Source of the DNA: Xanthobacteraceae bacterium
GTDB taxonomy: Bacteria; Pseudomonadota; Alphaproteobacteria; Rhizobiales; Xanthobacteraceae
Reading direction: 5' to 3'
NCBI GenBank assembly: GCA_039808405.1
Contig: JBDHSY010000001.1
Coordinates: 2,061-66,060 of the forward strand
DNA length: 64,000 nucleotides
A model generated the notes under the pieces. It was given only the letters and a program-made list of their open reading frames with translations, searched no databases and was not told the origin of the DNA. This document shows positions 43,180-63,837 of the stretch, in pieces. A program made the translations under genes and the position numbers. Within the stretch, counting starts at the first letter, position 1. Every line of letters starts with the position of its first letter.

Positions 43180-43181
43180 CC

Positions 43182-47459: not shown

Positions 47460-47491
47460 GCCCGAAAGGCGATCAGCCAGTGCGTGCAGCG

Positions 47492-47722
47492 CTACGCACT
47501 GGCGCCATCCTCGTCATAATCGGCGATCAGGTCGACGGGTTTTACCCCTAACGCCGTGGCAAGATGGAAAAGCGTCACCACTGTCGGATTGCGCCGACCG
47601 CGTTCGAGATCACTGACATATTGCTGCGTGAAACCGGAAACCTCGGCGAAACGCTCTTGGGTGACGCCTTGCTCACGCCTCAATCTGGCAAAGTTCAATC
47701 CAACAAGGCGACGCATATCCAT
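47492..47722 (-). CDS. XRE/Cro-C1-family HTH regulator (QseC-like position)
   Basis: 76 aa: LRREQGVTQERFAEVSGFTQQYVSDLERGRRNPTVVTLFHLATALGV. It is divergent from the DUF2285-like gene across an AT-richer 157-bp gap. Confidence 0.85.
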   Translation of the reverse strand: MDMRRLVGLNFARLRREQGVTQERFAEVSGFTQQYVSDLERGRRNPTVVTLFHLATALGVKPVDLIADYDEDGASA

Positions 47723-47826
47723 GCGTGCGACGCTGGACGATACACACTATCGGGTTTATCTCTTATAAGATGTATTGGCTGATTCAGTGGTCAGCACTGT
47801 CGTGCGCTTTTCATGCTTTAGGACTA

Positions 47827-47839
47827 TGCAAGCATTGCA
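47827..47839. promoter_or_regulatory. Palindrome TGCAA-gca-TTGCA in the divergent regulatory gap
   Basis: Seen directly in the sequence. An operator role is a guess. Confidence 0.25.
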
Positions 47840-47879
47840 GAGCCTTGAGAATTTGGACGTACGAGCCAGGGAGATATTC

Positions 47880-48158
47880 ATGAAACCCCCACCGCTCGAT
47901 CCTGCCGTTGCTGACACAGCGCCGGACGCAGCCTTCCTTACGCCTTATGATGAAGAGCATCTGATCACCTATTTGCGCTTGCTCGACGCCCAGAGTGATG
48001 ATGCGGGGTGGGAAGAAGTGGCACGCGTCGTTCTGCACATTGACCCGGAACTGGAACCCGCGCGCGCCCATAAAGCCTGGACAACGCATCTGGCCCGCGC
48101 GCAATGGATGGCCAAATCTGGATATAAACATCTGCTGCGCGGCGGCCCGCCAAACTGA
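47880..48158 (+). CDS. Small DUF2285-like protein (92 aa), QseM-like antiactivator candidate
   Basis: ATG 47880 (GGGAGA 6 nt upstream). HLITYLRLLDAQSDDAGWEEVA...LARAQWMAKSGYKHLL parallels the C-terminus of the downstream split gene (LILSIRLLDAERDGATERQMA...AHRLLDGGYLQIL). Confidence 0.65.
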   Translation: MKPPPLDPAVADTAPDAAFLTPYDEEHLITYLRLLDAQSDDAGWEEVARVVLHIDPELEPARAHKAWTTHLARAQWMAKSGYKHLLRGGPPN

Positions 48159-48303
48159 ACGGACGTGACCTGAGCGACGCTCAGCTATCACCATTCGTGC
48201 TGCCGGGATAACCGGGCGGTGGCTAGTCAAACACACGCACTACGCGAATCTTCCAATGTTGTGCCGCGGCGCATGAACCGCGGCCCTCTTGGGAGGTGTC
48301 GCC

Positions 48304-49084
48304 ATGCACAAGGCAGATTGGCGTTCTCCGGCAGAATATCGGTCCTTTCAACATTATGACCGCGCCGGATTCGCTTGGGAAATCGTTCGTCGCAATCGGG
48401 ATTACTGCCGAGAATATAGAGAAATACTTCGGACGAAGCCGCCAGACCCGCTTCAGATCGAGAGTTTCGTCAAGCGCTGGGGGTTGCGATTTCGGCTCTG
48501 ACCCGGACATCGCCTACGAAGGACAACCTGTCTTCTGGCTTCCCGAGGTTCTTCCCTCGGTTCTGCATATCCGCTCCGTAACGCCGGGCATGACGTCCTG
48601 GCCGCTCGATCCGGCGGCGCTGATGTCGGCGCCAAACGCCGTGCGGAGCCGAGACGGAGACCATGTCATCGTTGCGCCCGATGCGACGCACCGCGTCTGG
48701 ACCGATGGCTATTCCAAGGGCGTCATGGCGATTGTCCTGCCGCTGGATTTGCTGTTCGCCGACCGGGCGGCCGCCGCGATCCGCTTCTGGAATTCTCTCG
48801 TCGGCAATCGGGCGGGCCCGGAGCCGAAACCGCTCACGCCCTATGCGCGCGGCCAGCTCATCCTCTCTATCCGTCTGCTGGACGCCGAGCGAGATGGCGC
48901 CACCGAGCGTCAGATGGCCGAATATATCCTGAAGGAAAGTGCGCCGACGCGGCGTGACTGGCTGGCGACCGAGCATCGCTCGCGCCTTCGCCGCCTCTTG
49001 AAGAAGGCGCACAGGCTGCTGGACGGCGGCTATCTGCAAATATTGTGTCCGCCACCACGTCGCCCGCGACGCAAGGCAAAATAA
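48304..49084 (+). CDS. FseA-like transcriptional activator (DUF6499-like N-terminus plus DUF2285-like C-terminus) encoded in two frames: 48304-48492 (frame 1) joined to 48494-49084 (+1 frame)
   Basis: Frame 1 reads MHKADWRSPAEYRSFQHYDRAGFAWEIVRRNRDY...VKRWGLRF-RL*. The +1 frame continues GSDPDIAYEGQPVFWLPEV...GYLQIL. The junction at TTT_CGG matches the unsplit layout ..RWGLRF..DP....W.. that I recall for this family. Confidence 0.7.
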
Positions 49085-49199
49085 TTACACCCCTGAAAAG
49101 TCGACTCTCCCCCCACGCTGATCCGCTTCGCCAATCTGCACTCCGATGCGCTGACAGCCACTGCTGTCCGCCGTGACCCATTCGGAAGGCAGGACTGAG

Positions 49200-49487
49200 A
49201 TGCACCCTGATACGGATTTCGACTCGCTGCCCGGTTCGAAATATCTGCGGACGCCTGACGCGGCCCAGCTCCTCGGACTTTCCCCGAGAACACTCGAAAA
49301 GCATCGCACCTTCGGCACCGGGCCCACCTATCGCAAGCTCGGGGGCAGGATCGTCTATCGCGTGGATGACCTGCGCCAATGGGCCGATCGCGGCGTGCGC
49401 CAGTCCACCTCCGACCCAGGCGCGGGCACGGTGTTCGCCGCCAGACCTCTGACGGCCGAAGAAATAGCCGTAAGCGACGGTCGCTGA
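49200..49487 (+). CDS. Excisionase/AlpA-type HTH protein (RdfS-like candidate)
   Basis: Internal ATG 49200. YLRTPDAAQLLGLSPRTLEKHRTFGTGPTYRKLGGRIVYRVDDLRQWA is an HTH_17-like fold. Confidence 0.75.
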   Translation: MHPDTDFDSLPGSKYLRTPDAAQLLGLSPRTLEKHRTFGTGPTYRKLGGRIVYRVDDLRQWADRGVRQSTSDPGAGTVFAARPLTAEEIAVSDGR

Positions 49488-49493
49488 ACCATC

Positions 49494-50606
49494 ATGGCCG
49501 GCAATCATCGACCACTGGGCCAGAGCGAACGCGCGCGCCTCGATCCGTTTGAAGCGCTGTCCGGAAACGTGCCGCCGCGCGACCAGCGCGACCTCATGGA
49601 GCGCCCCTTCTTCTCGCTGGCGAAGGCCCGGCGCATCGCGCCGATCCTTTATAAATCCGGCGATACCGAAGTGCAGGTCTATGCCGTGCCCGAACATGGT
49701 CTGGCGACCATTTGGGATGCCGATGTCCTGATCTGGGCCGCGAGCCAGCTTCTCGCCGCCGACGATCGCGGACTGCCGACCTCCCGGTTTTTCCGCTTCA
49801 CGCCCTATCAACTGCTCACCTCCATCGGCCGGGGAACGGGCGCGCGCAACTACCACCTTCTCAAGGGCGCCCTGACACGGCTGCAATCGACGGTCGTGCG
49901 CACGACCATTCGGCACGGTGAGCATTGGCGACGCCAGCAATTCTCCTGGATCAACGAATGGGAGGAACTGGCGACACGGACCGGCCGGATCGAGGGCATG
50001 GAATTCGTTCTCCCCGACTGGTTCTACCATGGCGTCCTCGATCGCCGCCTCGTGCTGGCGATCGATCCAGGCTATTTCCGGCTCACCGGCGGCATTGAGC
50101 GCTGGCTTTATCGGATCGCGCGCAAACATGCCGGACGACAGCCCAATGGCTGGCGTTTCGAGCTGCGCCACCTTCACGCCAAAAGCGCCAGCCAATCACG
50201 CTTCTCCGATTTTGCACTGCACATCCGCGCCATTGTGCGGAGCCAATCGCTCCCTGGCTACGTCCTGGAGTTGGTGCCAGGAACGGGTTCGGAGACCCTC
50301 CTGGTGATGCGGCCGCGCATTATTGAGATCAGCGCAGGGCCTGTGGATAACTTTCCGCGTCATAAGCGCCGTATCGGTACTTCGGACGCAATGGCTATCG
50401 GTACTTCGAACGCAGTCCTATCCGTACTTCGGACGCACGCATCCCAGCTAAACCTTTGGCCTTCCAGCACAAAACTGGACTCTAAAGACTCTAAATCAGA
50501 ATCTAAAGAAGTAGTAGAAGCGCGCGGAGCTGGGGATAGATCGTCCAACGCCTCGCTTGGCGGCCGCTCCGACATCTCCCGAACTCGACAGGAGCGCCGC
50601 TCATGA
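49494..50606 (+). CDS. repA: Replication initiator protein A (RPA family)
   Basis: RDQRDLMERPFFSLAKARR...VYAVPEHGLATIWDADVLIWAASQL. 370 aa. Confidence 0.85.
   Translation: MAGNHRPLGQSERARLDPFEALSGNVPPRDQRDLMERPFFSLAKARRIAPILYKSGDTEVQVYAVPEHGLATIWDADVLIWAASQLLAADDRGLPTSRFFRFTPYQLLTSIGRGTGARNYHLLKGALTRLQSTVVRTTIRHGEHWRRQQFSWINEWEELATRTGRIEGMEFVLPDWFYHGVLDRRLVLAIDPGYFRLTGGIERWLYRIARKHAGRQPNGWRFELRHLHAKSASQSRFSDFALHIRAIVRSQSLPGYVLELVPGTGSETLLVMRPRIIEISAGPVDNFPRHKRRIGTSDAMAIGTSNAVLSVLRTHASQLNLWPSSTKLDSKDSKSESKEVVEARGAGDRSSNASLGGRSDISRTRQERRS
50373..50438 (+). repeat. Three iteron-like 19-bp direct repeats (period 23-24 bp) inside the 3' end of repA
   Basis: TATCGGTACTTCGGACGCA (50373), TATCGGTACTTCGAACGCA (50397), TATCCGTACTTCGGACGCA (50420). 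An AT-rich CTCTAAAGA/CTCTAAATCA/ATCTAAAGA patch follows at about 50470-50510. Confidence 0.75.
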
Positions 50607-51241
50607 TCGTCGCGCTCCTCAATCAGAAGGGCGGCGTCGGCAAGACCACGCTCGCGCTGCACCTTGCTGGACAATGGGCGAGGCAAGGGCGCCGTGTCCT
50701 GCTGATCGACGCCGATCCTCAAGGGTCCGCGCTCGACTGGTCGCAGCAACGCGCCGCCGAAGGACTGCCTCGGCTGTTCAGCGTGATCGGCCTCGCCCGC
50801 GACACCCTGCACATCGAAGCGCCGGAGCTGGCGCGCGGCATGGATCATGTGGTCATCGACGGGCCGCCGCGTGTCGCCACCTTGCTCCGCTCGGCGCTGT
50901 TCGCCTGCGACCTCGCGCTGATCCCGGTGCAGCCATCGCCGCTCGACGGATGGGCGTCGGCCGAGATGCTGAAGCTGATCGACCAGGCGCGCATCTTCAA
51001 ACCCGCGATCGGCGCGCGCTTCCTGCTCAACCGCTACCCCACGCGCACCCTGATCGCCCGCGCCACCGCCGAGAGCCTTGCCGAACACGACCCGCCGCTG
51101 CTGGCGCAACATGTCGGTCAGCGCGTGGTGTTCGCCGACGCCATGCAAACCGGGCGGCTGGTGTCGGAGGTCGATCCCGAAAGCACGGCAGCGCATGAGA
51201 TCACCGCGCTGGCCGCCGAGATCGAGGCGATCAGATCATGA
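50603..51241 (+). CDS. parA: ParA/Soj-type partition ATPase
   Basis: MIVALLNQKGGVGKTTLALHLA (deviant Walker A), LIDADPQGS. Confidence 0.9.
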   Translation: MIVALLNQKGGVGKTTLALHLAGQWARQGRRVLLIDADPQGSALDWSQQRAAEGLPRLFSVIGLARDTLHIEAPELARGMDHVVIDGPPRVATLLRSALFACDLALIPVQPSPLDGWASAEMLKLIDQARIFKPAIGARFLLNRYPTRTLIARATAESLAEHDPPLLAQHVGQRVVFADAMQTGRLVSEVDPESTAAHEITALAAEIEAIRS

Positions 51242-51492
51242 CGACGCGCAAGCTCAGAACAGGGTTCACGTCCCGGCCCGGTGCGGCCGAAGCGTGGATT
51301 GCGGGACCGCAGGACGCCGCTGCACCAACCGCGCCGCCGCCGGTCAACAGCGCCAGATTGACGATCGACGTGACGCCTCAGTTGCGGCGACGCCTCAAAC
51401 TCGCGGCGCTCCAGCGCGGCGTGTCGCTCGCCGACATGCTGCGCGAGCTGCTGCATCGTGAGTATCCCGACGATGCGGAAAACGGATCATGA
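51238..51492 (+). CDS. Ribbon-helix-helix partition/centromere-binding protein candidate
   Basis: 84 aa. The C-terminal RLTIDVTPQLRRRLKLAALQRGVSLADMLRELL is an RHH pattern. It is coupled to parA. Confidence 0.65.
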   Translation: MTTRKLRTGFTSRPGAAEAWIAGPQDAAAPTAPPPVNSARLTIDVTPQLRRRLKLAALQRGVSLADMLRELLHREYPDDAENGS

Positions 51493-51968
51493 GCGCCGCC
51501 CGCCACGCCGGTCGCACGCGCGTCGATCTGCTGTGGATCGAGCGCCGCATCGAGCGCTGGATACGCTTCGGTCGCCTGGTCGAGGATCAGATCCTCGACC
51601 GCCAGCGCCGCCGCGTCGCCTTCGCACAGGACAGCGTGTTCGCCTACGTCCGTTGGGCATCCAATGACTTCGGCACGCTGGTGTCGCGCATCGACATCCT
51701 GCGCGCCGTCAATCCGGGCGAACCCTGGCAGACCGTGCCGGGCGTCACGCCCGGCGGCGAGATTCTGCTGCGCGTCAATGGTTGGCCCAAGGTCCAGCGG
51801 GTGTTCGAGGCGATCGACGCCGTGGATGCGCTGAACATCGATCCCGCCGACGCCGCGCCCGACCATTGGCGACACGTCCATAACCGTCTCGCAGCGCAGG
51901 AAAGCCCGCGCCCCTACACGCTGGAGCGTCATCGCGCCTGGCTCGCCCGCAAGGGAGCATTGCAATGA
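51489..51968 (+). CDS. DUF2840-like conserved protein
   Basis: 159 aa, translationally coupled on both sides. It sits in the position seen upstream of traF in related elements (from memory). Confidence 0.6.
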   Translation: MSAARHAGRTRVDLLWIERRIERWIRFGRLVEDQILDRQRRRVAFAQDSVFAYVRWASNDFGTLVSRIDILRAVNPGEPWQTVPGVTPGGEILLRVNGWPKVQRVFEAIDAVDALNIDPADAAPDHWRHVHNRLAAQESPRPYTLERHRAWLARKGALQ

Positions 51969-52480
51969 GATTTCGCTGGGGAACGCTGGTGACGATGGTC
52001 GCGGCAGTCAATGTCATCGCAATTTCGGTGTGGATCAATCCGCCGCCGAAGCTGATCTGGAACGCCTCGGCCAGCGTGCCGATCGGCTTCTACACCGTCC
52101 GTCCGTCGAACAATCTGCGCGTCGGCGATCTCGCCGTCGTGACGCCGCCCGACGATGTCGCCGCGTTCCTTTCGGCGGGCGGTTATCTGCCCCTCGGCGT
52201 GCCGCTGATCAAACCGGTCGCCGCGCTGCCGGGCCAGATGGTGTGCCGCACCGGCATCGCCATCACCATCGACGGAAAGCCGTTCGGCGCTGCACGCGAA
52301 CGGGATCGGCTGCATCGGCCGTTGCCCGTCTGGAAAGGGTGCCGTGTCGTCGCCGCCGACGAGATTTTCTTCATGAACGCCGACCGCCTCGACAGCCTAG
52401 ACGGCCGCTATTTCGGGCCGCTGCCCGCATCGTCCGTGATCGGTCGCGCGACGCCGCTGCGCACGCGCGCATCATTCTGA
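51965..52480 (+). CDS. traF: S26-family conjugal transfer signal peptidase TraF
   Basis: N-terminal TM, ...NASASVPIGFY...GDLAVV...DSLDGRYFGPLP. Confidence 0.8.
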   Translation: MRFRWGTLVTMVAAVNVIAISVWINPPPKLIWNASASVPIGFYTVRPSNNLRVGDLAVVTPPDDVAAFLSAGGYLPLGVPLIKPVAALPGQMVCRTGIAITIDGKPFGAARERDRLHRPLPVWKGCRVVAADEIFFMNADRLDSLDGRYFGPLPASSVIGRATPLRTRASF

Positions 52481-52515
52481 TCGCTTTCCCCCTGCCAGCA
52501 CAAAGGAGATTGGCA

Positions 52516-52851
52516 ATGTACGCAGGCGCCTTCAAACCCACCGAGGACGGCTATTCAGGCCGCATCCGGATGTTCGGGATCGACGAGGCGATCATCATCG
52601 TCCCCGCCGAACCGAATGACGCCGAGAACGCGCCCGACTACCGGGTTCATCTCGACGAAGACGCCGGCCCGGAGATCGGCGCGGGATGGAAGCGCGTCGG
52701 CGAAAAGGCCGGCGACTATGTGTCGATCGAGATCGACAGCGCGATTTTCACCGGCCCGCCGTTGCGCGCCAATCTGTTCCGCGCCGATGACGAGGGCACG
52801 ACGTTCAACCTGTCGTGGAACCGACCGCGGCCGCGCGAAGACCGGAGCTGA
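52516..52851 (+). CDS. DUF736-family protein (second copy)
   Basis: Internal ATG 52516 (AAAGGAG upstream) gives MYAGAFKPTEDGYSGRI...PDYRV...GAGW... Confidence 0.78.
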   Translation: MYAGAFKPTEDGYSGRIRMFGIDEAIIIVPAEPNDAENAPDYRVHLDEDAGPEIGAGWKRVGEKAGDYVSIEIDSAIFTGPPLRANLFRADDEGTTFNLSWNRPRPREDRS

Positions 52852-52876
52852 TCGGTTGCGCCCGCGTCGCCGTTCC

Positions 52877-53581
52877 ATGCGTGGCCGGGCGCTGTCGCTG
52901 GCGTGGCTCGCCATCATGGCGAGCGCGCCGGCGACGGCCTTGCCCGTTCCCGCCGCCGCGCAAATGATCGCGCCGCACACCGCCGATCCTGTCGCCCGCC
53001 ATGTCGCCGAGGCATCGCGGCGGTTCGGCATTCCCCAGGCGTGGATATGGGCGGTGATGCGCGCCGAAAGCGCCGGCGACGTGCGCGCTATCTCCCATGC
53101 CGGGGCGATGGGCCTGATGCAGATCATGCCCGACACCTGGGCCTATCTGCGCGCCCGATACGGTCTTGGCGACGATCCCTATCATGTCAGGGACAACATC
53201 ATCGCGGGCACGGCTTACCTTCGCGAACTGCATGACCGCTTTGGATCGCCCGGTTTTCTCGCCGCCTATAATGCGGGACCGGGACGCTATGAACAGCACC
53301 TCGCAACCGGTCGACCGCTCCCCCGAGAGACCCGCGCCTATCTCGCGATCCTCGCGCCGATGGTCGGCGGATCGCAGCCTGACCGTGCGACTATCGCACC
53401 CGTCGATCCGCTGGCGTGGATGCGCGCGCCGCTATTCGCCATGCGCGCGGACGACGCCCGAGCTGCACCGCAAGCCGCAACCGAGACGCCGCCGGATGAC
53501 GAAACGGCCGCACAGAATGTTGCATCCGAAGAGCCTCCCGAACGCCTGTTCGTCCCTCTTTCCGGCCAGGAACCGTTATGA
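52877..53581 (+). CDS. Lytic transglycosylase (SLT domain)
   Basis: Signal peptide, AVMRAESAGD...GAMGLMQIMPDTW...AYNAGPGRY. Start at ATG 52877 (TTG 52856 is also possible). Confidence 0.85.
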   Translation: MRGRALSLAWLAIMASAPATALPVPAAAQMIAPHTADPVARHVAEASRRFGIPQAWIWAVMRAESAGDVRAISHAGAMGLMQIMPDTWAYLRARYGLGDDPYHVRDNIIAGTAYLRELHDRFGSPGFLAAYNAGPGRYEQHLATGRPLPRETRAYLAILAPMVGGSQPDRATIAPVDPLAWMRAPLFAMRADDARAAPQAATETPPDDETAAQNVASEEPPERLFVPLSGQEPL

Positions 53582-53834
53582 CGCGGGCTGGCGTGCCCCG
53601 TCGCGTCATAGGGTGCAAACGGATACAGACGGTCGGAAGCTCTTGGGATTTGGGTAGAAGCAGGGAGGCATGGCCAGATAAAAGGACCGCCGTCTCGCGG
53701 GGTCCATGTGGTTGGTTGGGCTTGCTTTTCTTGTCGGCTCCCAAAGTGGGCCTGCCAGCCGTGCTTTCAGAAAACAGCATGAAATCAATCGGCGCGCGTA
53801 TGGCGCCCGCTATTCGGCCCGGAAGCCGCGCCCG

Positions 53835-55589
53835 ATGAGCGCCCGCGACGATGATTTCCGGGTGCGCCCAGGAAGGCCTCGCGATAGCGCCAAGCAAGAC
53901 AAGCAGGCCAAGTCGTTCGTCGGTCAGGTGATGCGCGCCGCCAGGAAGGCCGGACACACAGGACGCGGCTTCGGACCTCGCCGGCAAGGCGGCGGAGGAT
54001 CGCGCTTTGGTCGCGGCAATGCCGCAGGCTCCAGTCGCGCTCGCCGGCCCGACATGCGCCGCGTCATCGTCAAGATGCGGGTCGTGCGCCATGCGGGCAC
54101 AAAGTTCCGGGCGGCGCCGATCGCCCGGCATGTGGCTTATCTGGAGCGCGAGGGCGTCACCCGCGATGGCGCGCCTGCCCAGATGTTTGATGCCGGCACC
54201 GACCGGGTCGATGGCGAAGCCTTCGCCGCACGGTGCGAAGACGACCGGCATCATTTCCGGTTCATCGTCTCGCCCGAGGACGCCGGCGAAATGCAGGACC
54301 TGCGCGCCTTCACCCGCGAACTGATGGCCGACGCCCAGCGCGACCTCGGCACATCGCTCGACTGGGTGGCCGTCGATCACTGGAACACGGATAATCCCCA
54401 TATCCATGTGCTGGTGCGCGGCCGCGCCGATGACGGCGGCGACCTCGTCATCAGCCGCAATTATGTGCGCGAGGGATTCCGGGGGCGAGCGGAGGATCGC
54501 GTCACGCTCGAACTCGGCCCGCGCAGCGAGCGCGAGATCCAGGCAGCGTTACGCAAGGATGTCGAGGCCGAGCGCTGGACCGGTCTGGACCGAACCTTGC
54601 GCAACATCGCCGACCATCACGGCGGCATCATCGATCTTCGCCCCGAAACCGGTTCTCACGATGCGGAAGAACGACGCCTGCTGGTCGGTCGGGCGCAGAA
54701 GCTCGAACGCCTCGGTCTTGCCGATCCTATCGGTCCCGCGTCATGGACGCTGAAGCCCGGCGGCGAAGAAACCTTACGCGCCCTGTCGATCCGCGGCGAC
54801 ATCATCAAGACCATGCACGCGGCGATGTCGCGAGGCGTCGGCACGCCAGATATTGCATCGTTCGCGATCCATGACGAACAGGTCGGCGATCCCGTGCTTG
54901 GCCGCCTGGTCGAACGCGGCCTGCATGACGAGCTGGCGGGCACAGCCTATGCCGTCGTCGAAGGTGTGGACGGGCGGACCCATCATCTGCGGTTCAGCGA
55001 TATCGACATGACGGGCGACGCAAGGCCGGGGGCGATCGTCGAACTGCGGTCCTGGGAGGACCACAAGGGCCAGCAACGCCATTCGCTCGCCACCCGTTCC
55101 GACCTCTCGCTGTACCGGCAGGTCACGGCCGACGGTGCGACATGGCTCGATCGCCATCTGATCGCGCGCGATCCGCCCATGCTTGGCGGCGGGTTTGGCG
55201 CGTCGGTGTCCGATGCGCTCGACGCACGGGCCGATCATCTGGTCGATGAAGGTCTGGCGCGGCGGCAAGGGCAGCGCATCATTTTCGCCCGTAATCTGAT
55301 CGGCACGCTGAAGCAGCGCGAACTGGACGGCGCCATCGCCCGGATCGCGGCCGAGACCGGATTGGCGCACAGGCCTTCGGCTCCGGGCGATCATATCGCT
55401 GGGACCTACCGCCAGCGCATCACGCTCGCGTCGGGCCGGTTCGCGATGATGGATGACGGACTGGGGTTCCAGCTCGTGCCCTGGCGGCCGGCGCTCGATC
55501 CGCAGCTTGGCAAGCACATCACCGGGACAATGGCGCCCGGTGGCGGGGTGGACTGGAGTTTTGGTAAGCAGCGTGGTCTGGGACTGTAG
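53835..55589 (+). CDS. Conjugative relaxase (VirD2-like relaxase domain plus DUF3363-like C-terminus)
   Basis: Internal ATG 53835. HVAYLEREG..., HFRFIVSPED, DHWNTDNPHIHVLVRG (His triad). Confidence 0.85.
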   Translation: MSARDDDFRVRPGRPRDSAKQDKQAKSFVGQVMRAARKAGHTGRGFGPRRQGGGGSRFGRGNAAGSSRARRPDMRRVIVKMRVVRHAGTKFRAAPIARHVAYLEREGVTRDGAPAQMFDAGTDRVDGEAFAARCEDDRHHFRFIVSPEDAGEMQDLRAFTRELMADAQRDLGTSLDWVAVDHWNTDNPHIHVLVRGRADDGGDLVISRNYVREGFRGRAEDRVTLELGPRSEREIQAALRKDVEAERWTGLDRTLRNIADHHGGIIDLRPETGSHDAEERRLLVGRAQKLERLGLADPIGPASWTLKPGGEETLRALSIRGDIIKTMHAAMSRGVGTPDIASFAIHDEQVGDPVLGRLVERGLHDELAGTAYAVVEGVDGRTHHLRFSDIDMTGDARPGAIVELRSWEDHKGQQRHSLATRSDLSLYRQVTADGATWLDRHLIARDPPMLGGGFGASVSDALDARADHLVDEGLARRQGQRIIFARNLIGTLKQRELDGAIARIAAETGLAHRPSAPGDHIAGTYRQRITLASGRFAMMDDGLGFQLVPWRPALDPQLGKHITGTMAPGGGVDWSFGKQRGLGL

Positions 55590-55626
55590 GTCTCGGCCAT
55601 TTCCCCCACCACCCCATCAGTCCGCA

Positions 55627-55655
55627 TTGAAATCAGCATCATTCGATGATAAATA
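55627..55655 (+). promoter_or_regulatory. Sigma-70-like promoter with a palindromic operator for vapBC
   Basis: TTGAAA-17 nt-TAAATA. The spacer holds the palindrome ATCAT-tcg-ATGAT (55638-55650). Confidence 0.55.
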
Positions 55656-55681
55656 TGTGCCTTCTGTGGAAAGGCTTCGAT

Positions 55682-55879
55682 ATGCGAACGACTATTGTGC
55701 TTGATGACGAACAGGTGGCGAAAGCTCAGGCATTCACCGGCCTGAAGGAAAAGTCCCAGCTGGTGCGGGAGGCATTCAAGGCACTTATCGAGCGTGAGAG
55801 CGCCCGCCGTCTTGCCTTGCTTGGTGGTAGCGAACCAGACTTGCAAGTCCCCGCCCGTCGTCGGTCTGTGGTCGAATGA
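55682..55879 (+). CDS. vapB: Type II antitoxin VapB
   Basis: MRTTIVLDDEQVAKAQAFTGLKEKSQLVREAFKALIERES. It overlaps vapC by 4 nt. Confidence 0.82.
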   Translation: MRTTIVLDDEQVAKAQAFTGLKEKSQLVREAFKALIERESARRLALLGGSEPDLQVPARRRSVVE

Positions 55880-56247
55880 TCCTTGTCGACAGCACGGTCT
55901 GGGTCGATCATCTGCGGCGAGGCGATCCTCTGCTTGCGAGCCGCCTCGACGCAGGGCTGGTTTACATCCACCCTTTCATCATAGGCGAGATCGCCCTGGG
56001 CAGTTTGCGCCAGCGCGATAAGGTACTGTCGGCGCTGCGCGATTTGCCGATGGCGAACCAGGCTTCCGACGATGAGGTTCAGGGCCTCATCGAACAGCAG
56101 CCGCTCTACAGCCTCGGTATCGGCTATATCGATGCACATCTCCTTGCCGCCACACGTCTGACGCCAGGGCTGCGACTCTGGACCCGCGACAAGCGGCTCA
56201 ATGACATCGCGTCCCGCCTCGGCGTTGCCGAAACCGCCCAACACTGA
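55876..56247 (+). CDS. vapC: PIN-domain toxin VapC
   Basis: MILVDSTVWVDHLR...GEIALG...GIGYIDAHLLA...LWTRDKRL (acidic PIN residues D5, E, D, D). Confidence 0.85.
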   Translation: MILVDSTVWVDHLRRGDPLLASRLDAGLVYIHPFIIGEIALGSLRQRDKVLSALRDLPMANQASDDEVQGLIEQQPLYSLGIGYIDAHLLAATRLTPGLRLWTRDKRLNDIASRLGVAETAQH

Positions 56248-56398
56248 TCGGCAGGGCTCCCAAGGCCTAGATCACGCTCTACGCGAGCGTTTCTTTTTGC
56301 GCGCCAAACCCGCCATTACTTCGACCCCCATCGCCAACATCTTGTAAAATCGGAGTTCCGCACCCGACCTCTACGGCATTTGCCGGGAAGGAAGGGCC

Positions 56399-58417
56399 GT
56401 GTCCGCCACCAAAATCCTCTGGGGCCAGATCCTCGTGGTGTTCGCCATCGTGCTGACGTCGATCTGGTCAGCGACGCAATGGACGGCGGCGGCGCTTGCT
56501 CACCAGCCCCAGTTGGGTTCGCCCTGGTTCACCGCTTTCGACACACCGGTCTATCCGCCGCCCGCCTTCTTCTGGTGGTGGTTTTCCTTCGACGCCTATG
56601 CGCCGGAGATTTTCCAACGCGGCGCCTATATCGCGGTATCGGGCGGTTTCCTGTCGATCATCGTCGCCATCGGCATGTCGGTGTGGCGCGCCCGCGAGGT
56701 TCGCAACGCCGAGACCTTCGGCACCGCGCGCTGGGCAAGCGTCAAGGAAATCCGCGGCGCTGGCCTGCTCGGCGATGACGGCGTGGTGCTCGGCCGGTTC
56801 CAGCGTGAATATCTGCGCCACGATGGCCCCGAGCATGTGCTCTGTTTCGCGCCGACCCGATCCGGCAAGGGTGTCGGTCTGGTGGTGCCATCACTGCTGA
56901 CCTGGCCGGGATCGGCGATCGTCCATGACATCAAGGGCGAGAACTGGGGCCTGACCGCCGGGTTCCGTAGCCGGTTCGGCAAGGTGCTCCTGTTCGATCC
57001 GACCAATGCATCGTCGGCCGCCTACAATCCGCTGCTCGAAGTGCGGCGCGGCGAATGGGAGGTGCGCGACGTCCAGAATGTCGCCGACGTGCTGGTCGAT
57101 CCGGAAGGCAGTCTCGAAAAGCGCAACCATTGGGAAAAGACCTCCCATGCATTGTTGGTCGGCACGATCCTGCATGTCCTCTACGCCGAACCCGACAAGA
57201 CCCTGGCCGGCGTCGCCAACTTCCTGTCGGACCCGAAGCGCCCGATGGAGACCACGCTGAAGGCGATGATGCTCACCCCGCATCTGGGCGAAGCCGGCGT
57301 CCACCCCGTCGTCGCCTCGGCCGCGCGCGAACTGCTCAACAAATCGGAGAATGAACGGTCAGGCGTGCTGTCGACGGCCATGTCGTTCCTCGGCCTCTAT
57401 CGCGATCCCGTCGTCGCGGCCGTGACCCGGCAATGTGACTGGCGCATCGCCGATCTGGTCGACGGCGCCCATCCGGTCTCGCTCTATCTGGTGGTGCCGC
57501 CGAGCGACATCAGCCGGACCAAGCCGCTGATCCGCCTGATCCTGAACCAGATCGGTCGCCGCCTGACCGAAGATCTGAAGTCGAAGGACGGACGACACCG
57601 GCTGCTGTTGATGCTCGACGAGTTTCCGGCGTTGGGGCGGCTCGACTTCTTCGAGAGCGCGCTGGCGTTCATGGCAGGCTACGGGATGAAGGCGTTCCTG
57701 ATCGCCCAATCGCTCAACCAGATCGAGAAGGCTTACGGCCCGAACAACGCCATTCTCGACAATTGCCATGTGCGCGTCAGTTTTGCGACCAATGACGAGC
57801 GCACCGCCAAGCGGGTGTCCGACGCGCTCGGCACCGCCACCGAGATGCGGGCGATGAAGAACTATGCCGGGCATCGCCTGTCGCCATGGCTCGGCCATTT
57901 GATGGTATCGCGCTCGGAGACCGCTCGCCAGCTCATGACGCCGGGCGAGATCATGCAGCTTCCGCCTGACGATGAGATCGTCATGATCGCGGGTGTGCCG
58001 CCAGTGCGGGCGAAGAAGGCCCGCTATTTCACCGACCGGCGCTTCACGTCACGCCTGTTGCCCGCGCCCAAAACCCAGCGGGCCACGACCACGCCGCGCC
58101 CGGATGACTGGACCGCATTGGCAGCGCCGCCGCGCCCGGTTCTTGCAGACCCGGCAGCCTCCAATGGACCGGACCGTAAAGGCGGAAAACCAACAAAGCC
58201 CGTAACCGCGAACCAAAGTGACACCGCCAACGCTAATATCCGGCGCGAGCCGGGCCTGCCCGATCATGAGGAGGTGGTGCGCGAGACGCCTGCGCCCAGG
58301 CAGGAGTTCACATTCGACGACATGGAGGCGGCGGACAGCGACGCCGCGACACAGCGCCGGATGCAGCGCCTCGCGCGCCAGGCCAGCCTCGATCCCGGCG
58401 ACGGCATCCAGCTCTGA
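56399..58417 (+). CDS. traG: Type IV coupling protein TraG/VirD4
   Basis: GTG start, two N-terminal TMs, Walker A APTRSGKGVGLVVP, LLLMLDEFPALG. Confidence 0.9.
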   Translation: MSATKILWGQILVVFAIVLTSIWSATQWTAAALAHQPQLGSPWFTAFDTPVYPPPAFFWWWFSFDAYAPEIFQRGAYIAVSGGFLSIIVAIGMSVWRAREVRNAETFGTARWASVKEIRGAGLLGDDGVVLGRFQREYLRHDGPEHVLCFAPTRSGKGVGLVVPSLLTWPGSAIVHDIKGENWGLTAGFRSRFGKVLLFDPTNASSAAYNPLLEVRRGEWEVRDVQNVADVLVDPEGSLEKRNHWEKTSHALLVGTILHVLYAEPDKTLAGVANFLSDPKRPMETTLKAMMLTPHLGEAGVHPVVASAARELLNKSENERSGVLSTAMSFLGLYRDPVVAAVTRQCDWRIADLVDGAHPVSLYLVVPPSDISRTKPLIRLILNQIGRRLTEDLKSKDGRHRLLLMLDEFPALGRLDFFESALAFMAGYGMKAFLIAQSLNQIEKAYGPNNAILDNCHVRVSFATNDERTAKRVSDALGTATEMRAMKNYAGHRLSPWLGHLMVSRSETARQLMTPGEIMQLPPDDEIVMIAGVPPVRAKKARYFTDRRFTSRLLPAPKTQRATTTPRPDDWTALAAPPRPVLADPAASNGPDRKGGKPTKPVTANQSDTANANIRREPGLPDHEEVVRETPAPRQEFTFDDMEAADSDAATQRRMQRLARQASLDPGDGIQL

Positions 58418-58432
58418 CAAAAAGGAACCGTC

Positions 58433-58870
58433 ATGCGCATCAAACACACATTTCGTCTGCCCGCCGATCTATCCGGTCGGCTCGCCGATTATGCGGCACG
58501 AAAACGCGTTGCCCAGACCCAGATTGTCGAAGCCGCGCTGTTGTCGTTCCTTTCACCCGATGGGTCCGAACGGCTGGAGGCCGCGATCGGCCGTCGTCTC
58601 GACCGGCTGTCGCGGCAGGCCGACCGGCTCGAGCATCATATCGGGATCTCGAACGAGGCGATGGCTCTATTTGTCCGCTTCTGGCTGACCACGACGCCGC
58701 CCTTGCCGGACACGGCCTTCGCCGCCGCCCAGGCCAGCGGCCGGGAGCGCTATCGCAGCTTCGTCGAGTCGCTCGGCCGGCGCATGGAGACCGGCGCAAG
58801 CTTGGCGCGTGAACTATCCGAAGATATCAAATCTACGCCAGAGCACGATACCGGCGATTTCGAGCAATAG
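58433..58870 (+). CDS. CopG/RHH-family regulator preceding the trb operon
   Basis: MRIKHTFRLPADLSGRLADYAARKRVAQTQIVEAALLSFL is an RHH N-terminus. Confidence 0.7.
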   Translation: MRIKHTFRLPADLSGRLADYAARKRVAQTQIVEAALLSFLSPDGSERLEAAIGRRLDRLSRQADRLEHHIGISNEAMALFVRFWLTTTPPLPDTAFAAAQASGRERYRSFVESLGRRMETGASLARELSEDIKSTPEHDTGDFEQ

Positions 58871-59010
58871 TCCAAACTCGCCGATCGTTTCTATTTGCAC
58901 GCCATAGCACGACGGCTTGATTTTAGTGTTGCGATTACCGGGTTTGTGTCTCTCTTACTTGTCCCCGATCGCAGCGCGCGTCGCCCGGCGGTCCTTGCAG
59001 GGGACAGATC

Positions 59011-60030
59011 GTGCAGCATCAACAGGTCGGATCGGAGGCGGATTCTCGCGGCGCGCGCATGTTGCGCACCGCGCTCGGCCCGTTAATCGCCGCCTGGCTG
59101 GCCGAGCCCGCCATCGTCGAAGTCATGCTCAATCCCGATGGACGCCTGTGGGTCGACCGGCTCGGTGAGGGCCTGGCCGACACGGGCGAACGTCTGTCGG
59201 CCGCGGACGGCGAACGCATCGTCCGCCTGGTCGCACATCATGTCGGCGTCGATGTCCATGCGCGTAATCCGCGCGTTTCGGCGGAACTGCCCGAGAGTGG
59301 CGAGCGGTTCGAGGGGCTGATCCCGCCCGTCGTCGCCGCGCCCGCCTTCGCGATCCGCAAGCCCGCCGTCGCGATTTTCACGCTCGACGACTATGCCCAA
59401 GCGGGGATCATGTCGCGCTTGCAGGCGGCGGTGCTCAGGAAGGGCGTTGCCGATCGCAGCAATATCCTGGTCGCGGGCGGCACCTCAACCGGCAAGACCA
59501 CGCTCACCAATGCGCTGCTGGCCGAGGTGGCGAAGACCGCTGATCGCGTCGTCCTGATCGAGGACACTCGCGAACTGCAATGCGCCTCCCCCAATCTGGT
59601 CGCGCTGCGCACCAAGGACGGCGTCGCTTCGCTCTCGGATCTTGTCCGTTCCTCGTTGCGCCTGCGCCCCGATCGCATCCCCATCGGTGAGGTGCGCGGC
59701 GCCGAGGCACTCGACCTTCTCAAAGCCTGGGGCACCGGCCATCCGGGCGGGATCGGCACCATCCATGCTGGCTCGGCACTGGGCGCGCTGCGCCGGATGG
59801 AACAGCTCATCCAGGAAGCGGTCGTGACCGTGCCGCGCGCGCTGATCGGCGAGACCATCGACATGGTGGCGGTGCTGGCCGGGCGCGGATCGGAACGCCG
59901 CCTGGCCGAACTCGCGCGCGTCGATGGTCTCGGCCCGGACGGCGACTTCGCGCTCACCCACCTCCCATGCCCTTCACCCGTATCGGCGGCGCCAGCGGCG
60001 ACCGTTCTTTCAGCAGGAGAAAGCCAGTGA
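59011..60030 (+). CDS. trbB: Mating-pair-formation ATPase TrbB (VirB11 family)
   Basis: [14 protein letters not shown], Walker [30 protein letters not shown]. The GTG start at 59011 is uncertain. Confidence 0.88.
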
Positions 60031-60386
60031 ACCCGACATCCAACGTTTGGCGGCCGATCGCCGCCATCTCGCATATGCGCCGGCAGGTCGCCGCTGGCGC
60101 ATTGGCGTGCGTCGTGGCCGTGACCCTGTCGGCCCCGGCGCGCGCCTCCGGTTCGTCGATGCCCTGGGAAGCCCCACTCCAGTCCATCCTCGAATCGATC
60201 GAAGGGCCGGTGGCGAAGATCATCGCCGTGATCGTGATCATCGTCACCGGCCTGACGCTTGCGTTTGGCGATTCCGGCGGCGGCTTCCGCAAGCTGATCC
60301 AGATCGTGTTCGGCCTGTCGATCGCCTTCGCCGCGTCGAGCTTCTTCCTGTCCTTCTTCAGCTTCGGCGGCGGGGCGCTGATCTGA
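60027..60386 (+). CDS. trbC: Pilin precursor TrbC (VirB2 family)
   Basis: GTG 60027 overlaps the trbB stop (AGGAGA upstream). Long signal, then two hydrophobic helices. Confidence 0.78.
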   Translation: MNPTSNVWRPIAAISHMRRQVAAGALACVVAVTLSAPARASGSSMPWEAPLQSILESIEGPVAKIIAVIVIIVTGLTLAFGDSGGGFRKLIQIVFGLSIAFAASSFFLSFFSFGGGALI

Positions 60387-60655
60387 TGCTGGAGGATGGC
60401 GAAGTCGCGGGCTTCTACGCCCCTGTCCACCGGGCGCTCACCGAGCCGATTCTGCTCGGCGGCGCCCCGCGCGCCATCGCCATCGCCAACGGCACCCTGG
60501 CCGCCGCGATCGGCGTCGGCCTCCAGCTCTGGATCGCCGGCGGCGTGCTCTGGCTGATCGGCCATCTGGCGGTGGTGTGGGCGGCCAAGCGCGATGCGCA
60601 GTTCCCCGACGTCGCCCGCCGCCACCTTCGCTACCCCGCCTATCTGCGCGTCTGA
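60386..60655 (+). CDS. trbD: TrbD (VirB3 family)
   Basis: Internal ATG 60386 overlapping the trbC stop. 89 aa: FYAPVHRALTEPILLGGAPR. Confidence 0.8.
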   Translation: MLEDGEVAGFYAPVHRALTEPILLGGAPRAIAIANGTLAAAIGVGLQLWIAGGVLWLIGHLAVVWAAKRDAQFPDVARRHLRYPAYLRV

Positions 60656-60667
60656 GGTCCACACCCC

Positions 60668-63118
60668 ATGATGAACCTTGCCGAATATCGAAGCCGCGCC
60701 AGCCATCTGGCGGATTTCCTGCCCTGGGCGGCGCTGGTCGCCGAGGGGATTGTGCTCAACAAGGACGGGAGCTTCCAGCGCACGGCGAAGTTTCGCGGTC
60801 CCGATCTGGATTCAGCGACGCCCGCCGAACTGGTCGCCGTCACCTCGCGCCTCAACAATGCGCTGCGCCGTCTGGGATCGGGCTGGGCGATCTTCGTCGA
60901 GGCGCAGCGCGTGCCGGCGGGCGGCTATCCTGAAAGCACATTTCCTGACGCCGCCTCAAACCTGGTCGACCGCGAACGCCGCGCACAGTTCGAGGAACAG
61001 GGCAGCCACTATGAGAGCGGTTATTATCTCACCCTGCTGTGGATGCCGCCCGCCGAAGACGCGGCGCGCGCGGAAAGCTGGCTCTATGAGGGCCGTACGC
61101 AAAAAGGCGTCGATCCCTGGGAGCTGGTCTCCAGCTTCGCCGATCGCACCGACCGCGTGCTGCAACTGGTCGACGGGTTCGTGCCCGAGGTCCGCTGGCT
61201 GGATGACGGCGAGACGCTGACCTATCTGCATTCGACGATCTCGACCCGTCGCCAGCGCGTGCGGGTGCCCGAGACCCCGATGCATCTCGACGCGCTGCTG
61301 GCCGACGAACCGCTGACCGGCGGCCTCGAACCGCGCCTGGGCGATCATCACTTACGCACGCTGACCATCACCGGTTTTCCATCGATGACCTGGCCGGGCC
61401 TGCTCGACGAACTGAACCGGCTGGCCTTCCCCTATCGCTGGGCGACGCGCGCGGTGATGCTCGACAAGACCGACGCCACGAAACTGCTCACCCGCATCCG
61501 GCGGCAATGGTTCGCCAAGCGCAAGAGCGTGGCGGCGATCCTGCGCGAGGTGATGACCAATGAAGCGTCGACGCTGGTGGACAGCGACGCGTCGAACAAG
61601 GCCGCCGACGCCGATGCCGCCTTGCAGGAGCTGGGCGCCGACGATGTCGGCCAGGCCTATGTCACCGCCACCGTCACGGTGTGGGATACCGATCCCGGCG
61701 TCGCCGCCGAGAAGCTGCGGCTGGTCGAGAAGGTCATCCAGGGCCGCGACTTCACCTGTATCGCCGAGGGCGTCAACGCAATCGAGGCGTGGATGGGCAG
61801 CTTGCCCGGCCATGTCTACGCCAATGTCCGGCAGCCACCGATCAGTACCTTGAACCTCGCGCATATGATCCCGCTGTCGGCCGTCTGGGCAGGGCCGGAG
61901 CGCGATGAGCATTTCGACGCGCCGCCCTTGTTCTTCGCCAAGACAGAAGGATCGACGCCGTTCCGTTTCTCGCTGCATGTCGGCGACGTCGGCCACACGC
62001 TGATCGTCGGCCCGACCGGCGCGGGCAAATCGGTGCTGCTGGCGCTGATCGCCATGCAGTTCCGCCGCTACGAACGCGGCCAGGTGTTCGCGTTCGACTT
62101 TGGCGGCTCGATCCGCGTCGCGGCGCTGGCGATGGGCGGCGACTGGCAGGATCTCGGCGGCAGCTTGTACGGCAAGGATACTGGGACCACTGCGGCGGCC
62201 AGCGTCTTCCTGCAACCGCTCGCGCGGATCGACGATCCCGCCGAACGTAATTGGGCGTCCGAATGGCTCGCCGCCATCCTGACCGCCGAAGGCGTGACGG
62301 TCGATCCCCAGGTGAAGGACTATCTCTGGTCGGCGCTGGGGTCGCTGGCATCCGCGCCGGTCGCCGAGCGCACGCTGACCGGCCTTGCCGTCCTCCTCCA
62401 GCAGCAACAGTTGAAGCAGGCGCTCGGCCCCTATTGCGTTGGCGGACCTTACGGCCAGTTGCTCGATGCGGAATCCGAACATCTCGGCGATGCCGATGTC
62501 CAGGCGTTCGAGACCGAGGGTCTGACCGGAACCGGGGCCGCGCCCGCCGTGCTCTCCTATCTGTTCCACCGGATCGAAGGCCGGCTCGATGGCTCGCCGA
62601 CCCTGATCATCATCGACGAGGGCTGGCTGGTGCTGGACTCGCCAGCCTTCGCACAACAGCTCAAGGAATGGCTGAAGACGCTTCGCAAGAAGAACGCCAG
62701 CGTCATCTTCGCCACCCAGAGCCTCGCCGATATCGAAACGTCGACCATTGCGCCGGCCATCGTCGAGAGTTGCCCGACCCGCATCTTCCTGCCCAATGAA
62801 CGCGCGATCGAACCGCAGATCACCGCCATCTACCGGCGGTTCGGCTTGAACGACCGCCAGATCGAGATTCTGAGCCGCGCCACCCCCAAGCGCGATTATT
62901 ATTGCCAGTCGCGGCGCGGCAACCGGCTGTTCGATCTTGGCTTGGGCGATGTCGCGCTCGCCTTCACCGCCGCCTCGTCGAAGACGGATCAGGCGCGCAT
63001 CGCCGATCTGATCGCCGAGCAGGGCCGCGACGGCTTCGCCGCCGCCTGGCTGCGCATTCGCGGCCTCGAATGGGCCGCCGATCTCCTTTCCCCCGCAGCC
63101 CCGGAGTATGAGCCATGA
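60668..63118 (+). CDS. trbE: TrbE (VirB4 ATPase)
   Basis: 816 aa with Walker A GPTGAGKS and Walker B LIIIDEGW. Confidence 0.92.
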   Translation: MMNLAEYRSRASHLADFLPWAALVAEGIVLNKDGSFQRTAKFRGPDLDSATPAELVAVTSRLNNALRRLGSGWAIFVEAQRVPAGGYPESTFPDAASNLVDRERRAQFEEQGSHYESGYYLTLLWMPPAEDAARAESWLYEGRTQKGVDPWELVSSFADRTDRVLQLVDGFVPEVRWLDDGETLTYLHSTISTRRQRVRVPETPMHLDALLADEPLTGGLEPRLGDHHLRTLTITGFPSMTWPGLLDELNRLAFPYRWATRAVMLDKTDATKLLTRIRRQWFAKRKSVAAILREVMTNEASTLVDSDASNKAADADAALQELGADDVGQAYVTATVTVWDTDPGVAAEKLRLVEKVIQGRDFTCIAEGVNAIEAWMGSLPGHVYANVRQPPISTLNLAHMIPLSAVWAGPERDEHFDAPPLFFAKTEGSTPFRFSLHVGDVGHTLIVGPTGAGKSVLLALIAMQFRRYERGQVFAFDFGGSIRVAALAMGGDWQDLGGSLYGKDTGTTAAASVFLQPLARIDDPAERNWASEWLAAILTAEGVTVDPQVKDYLWSALGSLASAPVAERTLTGLAVLLQQQQLKQALGPYCVGGPYGQLLDAESEHLGDADVQAFETEGLTGTGAAPAVLSYLFHRIEGRLDGSPTLIIIDEGWLVLDSPAFAQQLKEWLKTLRKKNASVIFATQSLADIETSTIAPAIVESCPTRIFLPNERAIEPQITAIYRRFGLNDRQIEILSRATPKRDYYCQSRRGNRLFDLGLGDVALAFTAASSKTDQARIADLIAEQGRDGFAAAWLRIRGLEWAADLLSPAAPEYEP

Positions 63119-63837
63119 CCCGTTTTCAGTTGCGCCGCGCGATGATCGCCGGCGTCGCCCTGCTTGCCGTTGCCGGCGTCTCGGCCCCCGCCAGCGCACA
63201 ATTCGGCTTTGGTGGGATTGTCTATGATCCCACCAACTATGCCCAGAATGTGCTGACCGCAGCTCGCTCACTCCAGCAGATCAACAATCAGATCCAGTCG
63301 CTCCAGAACGAGGCGTCCTCGCTGATCAATGATGCGAAGAATCTCGCCAGCCTGCCATTCTCCTCGCTCCAGCAACTCCAGGCGCAGGTCCGCCAGACCC
63401 AGCAGCTTCTCGGTCAGGCGCAGCGTATCGCCTATGACGTCCAGCAGATCGAGCAGGCGTTTTCGACCCGCTACCGCAACATCGACCTCAATGCCTCCGA
63501 TCAGGCGCTGGTCGACGGCGCGCAAGACCGCTGGGAGACCAGCGTCGCCGGGTTCGAGGATGCGCTGAAGGTCCAGGCCGGCGTCGTTGGCAATATCGAC
63601 GGCGCCCGCACGGCCATGTCGAACATCGTCGGCGCGAGCCAGTCGGCGACCGGCGCATTGCAGGCGGCGCAGGCCGGCAACCAGCTTCTCGCCTTGCAAT
63701 CCCAGCAGATCGCGGACCTCACGGCGCTTCTCGCCGCGCAGGGCCGCGCGCAGGCGCTCGAATCCGCCCGCGACGCCGCCGCCGAAGCGCAAGGCCGCGA
63801 GCAGTTCCGCCGCTTCATGACGCGCAGCGGCAACTGA
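63115..63837 (+). CDS. trbJ: TrbJ (VirB5-like)
   Basis: Signal peptide, then GGIVYDPTNYAQNVL and coiled-coil Q-rich repeats. Confidence 0.85.
   Translation: MTRFQLRRAMIAGVALLAVAGVSAPASAQFGFGGIVYDPTNYAQNVLTAARSLQQINNQIQSLQNEASSLINDAKNLASLPFSSLQQLQAQVRQTQQLLGQAQRIAYDVQQIEQAFSTRYRNIDLNASDQALVDGAQDRWETSVAGFEDALKVQAGVVGNIDGARTAMSNIVGASQSATGALQAAQAGNQLLALQSQQIADLTALLAAQGRAQALESARDAAAEAQGREQFRRFMTRSGN

Follow-up and report, generated by a model that had tools for sequence, protein, structure and literature searches.

A split gene of the FseA activator family with a candidate +1 recoding site in an apparent metal-resistance conjugative element

The split gene and its neighbours

The stretch of DNA analysed here, the window, spans 64,000 nucleotides and carries two overlapping reading frames that together resemble an activator of conjugative elements (Table 1). 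ORF-A starts at an ATG (48304), with GGGAGG seven bases before it (48291-48296), and its 0 frame ends in AAG CGC TGG GGG TTG CGA TTT CGG CTC TGA, giving a product with the C-terminus ..KRWGLRFRL; the TTT near this end occupies 48490-48492, the following C is 48493, and the TGA stop lies at 48499-48501. In the +1 frame no stop interrupts reading from 48296 until the terminal one at 49082-49084, and from 48494 this frame reads GSDPDIAYEGQPVFWLPEV... Both frames had been described in the earlier note and are confirmed in the sequence. Skipping of one base at TTT_C (48490-48493) joins them into a 259-aa fused protein with the junction RWGLRF/GSDP; the predicted junction peptide is WGLRFGSDPDIAYEGQPVFW / WGLRFGSDPDIAYEGQPVFWLPEVLPSVLHIR, and its predicted tryptic form is FGSDPDIAYEGQPVFWLPEVLPSVLHIR.

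Each part belongs to a recognizable domain family. ORF-A alone matches PF20109 (DUF6499, now Trans_reg_dom) over residues 5-64 with an E value of 8e-23, the +1 part matches PF10074 (DUF2285, now RovC_DNA-bd; E 1.3e-22), and Pfam finds both domains on the conceptual fusion in the expected order. The DUF6499 motif AWEIVRRN (residues 24-31, from nt 48373) corresponds to the AWEFLRRN-like alpha-2 motif, and W25, E26, R29 and R30 are invariant among the aligned homologues. The DUF2285 part of the fusion (residues 180-259), in this family an extended-turn HTH domain, has a net charge of +10.9. The 15-mer GGGGGTTGCGATTTC occurs a single time in the window, as do the motifs of each domain, the DUF2285-only gene upstream excepted.

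This upstream gene is a homologue of qseM, the product of which matches QseM itself (PDB 7UQT, E 1.3e-19) and PF10074 (E 7.6e-8) and has a net charge of -5; a DUF2285-only gene on the common strand also lies upstream in most related loci. The divergently transcribed gene next to it encodes a protein with similarity to C.AhdI (E 2e-9) and QseC (9XZ9, E 1.7e-7) among PDB sequences, and the rdfS-like product encoded 115 nt downstream of the fseA stop matches RdfS (PDB 8DGL, E 4.2e-11).

Table 1. Positions of the split gene, its candidate recoding site and the surrounding features (window coordinates)
Feature	Position	Strand	Basis
QseC-like XRE/C-protein repressor gene, divergent from qseM	47492..47722	-	Pfam HTH_3, E 2.5e-15
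qseM homologue, DUF2285-only acidic antiactivator; ATG 47880 after AGGGAG	47880..48158	+	PDB 7UQT, PF10074
ORF-A, msi172-like 0 frame, DUF6499, 65 aa	48304..48501	+	PF20109
Candidate recoding site TGG GGG TTG CGA TTT CGG	48478..48495	+	CGATTTC conservation; published site
+1-frame part, msi171-like: middle domain and DUF2285 DNA-binding domain, 196 codons and stop	48494..49084	+	PF10074
Perfect inverted repeat GACAGC-cact-GCTGTC, 32 nt upstream of the rdfS-like ATG	49153..49168	+	
rdfS-like excisionase/recombination directionality factor, presumed target operon of the activator	49200..49487	+	Pfam HTH_17
RepA (RPA), ParA, RHH, DUF2840, S26 peptidase TraF, DUF736, SLT transglycosylase	49494..53581	+	Domain matches
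DUF3363 relaxase, TraG coupling protein, TrbB/VirB3-like/TrbE type IV secretion	53706..63837	+	

The intergenic regions of this module contain several repeats. The 157 nt between the QseC-like gene and qseM (47723-47879) are AT-rich and include ATGCTT-N11-AAGCAT (about 47812-47834); by analogy with OL/OR of QseC, the operator and promoter of the switch probably lie here. The qseM-fseA spacer (48159-48303, 145 nt) holds a palindrome, CTGAGCG-a-CGCTCAG (about 48170-48184), and a 7-bp stem, GCCGCGG-N8-CCGCGGC (about 48262-48284), the latter immediately ahead of the ribosome-binding site of fseA; neither of the two has a T-run after it. A promoter and terminator scan of 47400-49300 gave nothing useful on the plus strand.

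Upstream of rdfS, the known FseA box consists of inverted hexamers 15-16 bp apart that adjoin the -35 element. Perfect inverted hexamers of this type, searched with spacers of 12-19 bp, are absent upstream of the rdfS-like gene in the present clade, and a distant clade carries GGGCGA-N18-TCGCCC upstream of its rdfS-like gene. Two conserved blocks, 49096-49114 (AAAGTCGACTCTCCC, about 95 nt upstream of the rdfS-like ATG) and 49127-49139 (CTTCGCCAAnCTG, about 65 nt upstream; TTCGCCACCGTG in distant relatives), are likely to be promoter or activator-site elements. The core of AAAGTCGACTCTCCC, TCGA(C/T)(T/A)C(T/C)CCC, is also found in distant relatives, where it lies between the inverted hexamers GGGCGA and TCGCCC.

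The inverted repeat close to the rdfS-like start has counterparts elsewhere: in 22 of 31 related loci, compared with 8% of shuffles, the matching position holds a repeat whose stem measures 6 bp or more. These stems are 6-7 bp long and end 26-32 nt before the rdfS-like start (L001-L004, L011-L013, L018-L021, L024-L044 and others), and their sequence changes by clade while pairing is kept (GACAGC/GCTGTC, GACGGC/GCCGTC, GCCGCTG/CAGCGGC, GTCGCTG/CAGCGAC). The repeat could represent an RNA hairpin in the 5'-UTR or a co-evolving palindromic operator; we found no description of it in the FseA-system literature examined.

On a larger scale, the gene order from RepA to the SLT transglycosylase is common to split and unsplit relatives, and upstream of the switch lie genes for ArdC, a ParB-like protein, a 1450-aa Strawberry-notch-like helicase and a Toprim protein. 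Two DUF736 genes (46163-46483 and 52543-52851) flank the regulatory and transfer module and are duplicated likewise in the loci L078-L084. Metal-resistance cargo is dense at 1653-29128 and 43068-45010 and comprises two RND efflux systems with CusB/CusF-type adaptors and OEPs, an HMA-CDF transporter, CopA/CopB/CopD-type copper genes, a P-type ATPase, a MerA-like pyridine-nucleotide disulphide reductase, ACR3 and ArsH. The whole appears to be a metal-resistance conjugative element. Neither an integrase nor attachment sites were located within the 64-kb window, Rfam and tRNA scans over its full length returned nothing, and a Pfam scan of 43 window ORFs and reading-frame segments found no LuxI/LuxR domain.

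Conservation of the split and the weighing of alternatives

Searches with the fused protein separate two groups of relatives. Close relatives (74-98% identity) appear in the annotation solely as DUF2285 proteins (242 or 164 aa) and are therefore split, and full-length relatives with a single ORF (253-266 aa) share 47-56% identity. An alignment of the fusion with 12 of these unsplit homologues runs without a gap across RWGLRFG(A/S)DP, and D66, P67, Q74, W78, L79, P80 and L87, just past the junction, are invariant in it. The proposal of the earlier note that omission of C48493 restores the junction pattern of unsplit DUF6499-DUF2285 proteins is thereby upheld.

A scan limited to one genome per species yielded 77 related loci, nearly all of which are split +1 at the identical place. 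About 70 independent alphaproteobacterial loci share this position at protein identities of 25-98%, in isolates as well as in MAGs. They include Sandaracinobacteroides sayramensis RS1-74 (98% protein identity and 97.3% nucleotide identity over the gene), a Rhizorhapis MAG (75%), Hephaestia caeni (61%) and many other Alphaproteobacteria (25-48%); S. sayramensis and H. caeni are isolate genomes. The heptamer CGATTTC, set within TGG GGN TTG CGA TTT C, is 100% conserved in the 37 unique 105-nt segments obtained from 55 loci, and loci missed by the motif search proved in a tblastn frame check to be almost all +1 split, from N-frame to C-frame, with only one unsplit (L006). The earlier note had asked whether split and slip heptamer are conserved among homologues, and on these 55 loci and 37 unique sequences they are. 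Annotations of plasmid-borne relatives list a 'DUF6499' gene and a 'DUF2285' gene side by side, and a megablast of 47400-49600 against plasmids gave no match.

Some variants deserve mention in their own right. One locus (L018) has CGC TTT C in place of CGA TTT C, and five loci from Reyranella/Rhodospirillales (L005, L007, L008, L009 and L047) are split +1 at TGG GGG TTA CTT CTA CCC, without TTTC; these may use a different slip motif (CUU_C?) in one gene family. Identical match statistics and site sequence are seen in Dyella sp. (L013, Gammaproteobacteria), a Mesorhizobium MAG (L014) and Bosea (L015), and such identity of the fseA region across different classes and orders suggests recent horizontal transfer of one element.

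Split and unsplit forms differ by a single extra C: unsplit relatives continue directly to Gly or His, and TTT GGC in these corresponds to TTT C GGC in the split genes. This one-base difference, together with the existence of unsplit homologues at about 50% identity in a matching gene context, is what could be expected from a sequencing or assembly error, or from a recent inactivating mutation that has left a pseudogene. We consider either origin extremely improbable, since the same split and heptamer recur in the approximately 70 independent loci, isolates and MAGs alike. The behaviour of the codons at the site points the same way. Unsplit relatives vary in the codons of WGLRF (GGA/GGG/GGC, TTG/CTG, AGG/CGG/CGC/TGC and TTC/TTT), whereas TTG CGA TTT is frozen in split genes; synonymous freedom at the site is thus confined to the unsplit genes, the opposite of what decay would produce. 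Within the window, TTG, CGA, TTT and GGG account for 9%, 6%, 20% and 15% of the codons for their respective amino acids. This contrast between frozen and free site codons is one gain from the comparative data, the other being that they draw attention to CGA as a possible signal component. Substitution patterns also argue against a pseudogene: upstream of the junction, differences fall mainly at ORF-A codon position 3 (4/4 for L001, 17/26 for L002, 26/39 for L011), and downstream of it, differences against the same three loci concentrate at position 3 of the +1 frame. Both gene parts are under purifying selection, each in its own frame.

The split could alternatively reflect two independent proteins that associate non-covalently, the DUF2285 part being started in the +1 frame at GTG 48296, ATG 48356 or ATG 48590. 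Gene callers do annotate the locus type in this manner (242-aa and 164-aa products, separate plasmid genes), the main product is certainly the DUF6499 peptide of the 0 frame, which may have a role of its own, and QseM of R7A binds Msi172 (PMC10359603). Nonetheless, this arrangement is very unlikely. Upstream differences read in the +1 frame lie mainly at codon position 2 (17/26 and 26/39), which shows that the +1 frame is not coding upstream of the junction. The earlier note raised the question whether the parts have starts of their own; from 48356 to 48590 the +1 frame offers no further ATG, GTG or TTG. Conserved residues are nevertheless encoded by the 32 codons at 48494-48589, and a protein begun at 48590 would lose these 32 residues with their invariant positions. 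Independent initiation also leaves the invariant CGA-TTT-C unexplained, and the literature reports that activity in R7A depends on the fusion and that bona fide DUF6499 is always accompanied by an adjoining DUF2285 (PMC4755241, PMC10359603). Codon freedom, codon phase and the lack of an alternative start in combination make an indel artefact, a pseudogene and independent initiation very unlikely. A change at the RNA level, through polymerase slippage on G5 (48479-48483) or on T3 with loss of one transcript base, can be given hardly any credence either. The G5 run does lie just upstream, and a one-base deletion in it would likewise enter the +1 frame. Such runs of 3-5 bases are, however, shorter than those known for productive polymerase slippage, and deletion within G5 would yield ..RWGCDFGSDP.., yet it is WGLRF that unsplit homologues conserve. 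The G5 run is moreover not invariant in split loci, where GGA, GGT, GGC, CGA and AGG also occur, unlike CGA-TTT-C, and the published work on R7A ascribes the event to ribosomal frameshifting (PMC4755241).

The candidate slip site and its signal elements

The gene is, in our reading, very probably a deliberately split member of the FseA family of conjugative-element activators, the parts of which would be joined by a +1 programmed frameshift. The earlier note had proposed an FseA-type activator with a +1 site, and domains, junction, site conservation and the QseC, QseM and RdfS neighbours agree with that proposal. The occurrence and efficiency of the shift, as well as the target promoter and the antiactivation by QseM, are extrapolated from the Mesorhizobium R7A system. 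The msi172 site described there contains a slippery UUUC, at which tRNA-Phe moves from UUU to UUC, with a conserved G-rich region upstream and an efficiency of 4-13% (PMC4755241); the WGL motif of the family is encoded by the ribosome-binding-site-like UGGGGG (PMC10359603). Both elements, UGGGGG and UUUC, are present in TGGGGGTTGCGATTTC at 48478-48493, which comprises the Shine-Dalgarno-like GGGGG (48479-48483) and the heptamer CGA_TTT_C (48487-48493), the skipped base being C48493 or, equivalently, T48490.

Most ribosomes would accordingly remain in frame on ORF-A and release a 65-aa peptide with DUF6499 only, at the TGA of 48499. A minority would shift by +1 at CGA_UUU_C (48487-48493), and in the standard model this would involve P-site tRNA-Phe (anticodon GAA) exchanging its wobble-paired UUU for a Watson-Crick-paired UUC. 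GGC would then be the next codon, and reading on to 49084 would give the 259-aa DUF6499-middle-DUF2285 product with ..RWGLRF/GSDPD.. at its junction. The UGGGGG six bases 5' of UUU is probably an internal Shine-Dalgarno-like stimulator or pause. The spacing between GGGGG and UUU amounts to 6 nt; at prfB, the distance from the Shine-Dalgarno-like element to the slip is a shorter 3 nt.

The slip-site logic set out in the earlier note stands in part. Re-pairing from UUU to UUC is in accordance with the published msi172 site (PMC4755241), and the roles assigned to the CGG codon and to the nearby stop are not sustained. CGG, the 0-frame A-site codon, makes up 24% of the Arg codons of the window (about 20 per 1000) and is not rare, so that a simple 'hungry codon' pause is unsupported; relatives have CCN or CGN at this position, and a hungry CGG codon was rejected as a conserved signal element. 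So was the 0-frame stop, which here comes two codons behind the slip but in relatives lies 7 to 56 codons past the Trp codon. RNA folding of 48470-48580 revealed no structure beyond that of shuffled controls (z -0.71), and a downstream stimulatory stem-loop or pseudoknot is therefore unsupported.

The codon preceding the slippery Phe codon may add to this picture. CGA is conserved as strongly as the Phe slip codon (37/37 unique sequences, with a single CGC exception elsewhere) and was never found at the site in the unsplit relatives sampled. Decoding of CGA proceeds via inosine-adenosine wobble. A rare and near-invariant CGA suggests, from sequence conservation, that this codon is part of the recoding signal; it further suggests either a destabilisation of the frame by tRNA-Arg(ICG) when this occupies the E or P site, or a shift one codon earlier than in the published model. 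The ..LRFGS.. product is identical whether UUU slips in the P site (skipping C48493) or CGA occupies the P site and UUC is read (skipping T48490), so the junction peptide cannot tell the two slip positions apart. In view of the widespread qseM-fseA tandem, frameshifting may also fix the ratio of antiactivator to activator on a shared transcript, and the abundant 65-aa 0-frame peptide could serve as a decoy for QseM. Taken jointly, a signal consisting of the heptamer CGA_UUU_C instead of UUUC alone, a ratio fixed on a shared transcript and a decoy peptide form a speculative combination that we regard as rather unlikely.

Relation to known systems and regulatory meaning

FseA (msi172-msi171) of Mesorhizobium japonicum/loti R7A ICEMlSymR7A is reportedly the subject of work by Ramsay et al. 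in PNAS (2015). Jowsey et al. (NAR 2023, PMC10359603) described the FseA family, whose DUF6499-DUF2285 activators share a conserved +1 programmed frameshift; it comprises 4709 unique homologues across Proteobacteria, about 61% of which are split by a conserved +1 site, and its members are routinely misannotated (PMC10359603). Mechanism and wide distribution are hence already published, and the present locus adds another member of the FseA family but opens no new question.

Similarities to the R7A system are extensive. As in FseA of R7A, the 0 frame encodes DUF6499 and the +1 frame DUF2285, and, by comparison with the published description, the slippery UUUC follows a UGGGGG that codes for the conserved WGL. 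Genes of a QseM-type antiactivator and a QseC-type C-protein are adjacent in both systems, the DUF2285 domain is basic and QseM acidic, and an RdfS homologue, TraF, a lytic transglycosylase and a DUF3363 relaxase are encoded downstream. The backbone as a whole recalls that of ICEMlSymR7A, with rdfS, traF (S26), lytic transglycosylase, DUF3363 relaxase, traG and trb genes.

The differences concern host, cargo and gene arrangement. The host here is sphingomonad-like, with Sandaracinobacteroides sayramensis as the best match (97% nt identity), and the cargo is metal resistance, whereas R7A carries symbiosis genes. qseM lies directly upstream of fseA on the same strand and occupies the place of traI2; in R7A, by contrast, qseM is convergent with fseA, which is expressed from a TraR-activated promoter downstream of traI. 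Unlike in R7A, no traI2, traR or other LuxI/LuxR gene is found among the ORFs scanned, and the input signal is therefore probably not quorum sensing. In addition, rdfS follows immediately after fseA here, repA-parA separate rdfS from traF, the region ahead of rdfS yielded no FseA-box-like inverted hexamers, and the 0-frame A-site codon is CGG as opposed to CCN in most relatives sampled. Judged by sequence, the locus appears to carry the testable features of an FseA system with the exception of the quorum-sensing input and the FseA-box hexamers.

Two further systems offer points of comparison. The release factor 2 gene prfB of E. coli sets the level of a regulator through a +1 P-site slip at a U-rich tetramer with an upstream Shine-Dalgarno-like G-rich element. 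The present site resembles it in the proposed +1 P-site slip onto an overlapping codon and in the upstream internal Shine-Dalgarno-like element, but differs in that prfB is autoregulatory and combines CUU_U with UGA in the A site, while here UUU_C is combined with the sense codon CGG and no feedback via the A-site codon is evident. RovC of Yersinia (PDB 6XZ5) shares an AWE.LRRN-like motif and the DUF2285 domain and is the top structural match; unlike the split gene, it is encoded by a single ORF, and it is hexameric and controls a T6SS, with marginal sequence similarity (E 0.011). AlphaFold2 modelling of the fusion on an alignment of 13 sequences gave moderate confidence with a mean pLDDT of 63, with 74-91 for the DUF6499 part, 83-92 for the DUF2285 part and poor values for the middle domain, owing to the small number of sequences. 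Foldseek placed RovC 6XZ5 on top (probability 0.99, E 0.02), followed by QseM 7UQT (E 0.34); with such weak E values, the structure matches of the model provide weak evidence in agreement with the published family assignment.

Altogether, the locus should be annotated as one recoded gene, join 48304..48492, 48494..49084, and not as two hypothetical genes or a pseudogene. By homology, its full-length product would activate the rdfS-like operon directly downstream and thereby excision and transfer, while the acidic QseM homologue would bind the DUF6499 domain of the full-length activator and block it, and the divergent QseC-like repressor would control qseM. Frameshifting would restrict activator synthesis to a few per cent of translation events and could so render the induction of costly transfer less leaky. 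The switch appears to operate here without a quorum-sensing input. The locus marks the metal-resistance element as probably self-transmissible and subject to the tightly damped QseC/QseM/FseA/RdfS switch known from symbiosis islands.
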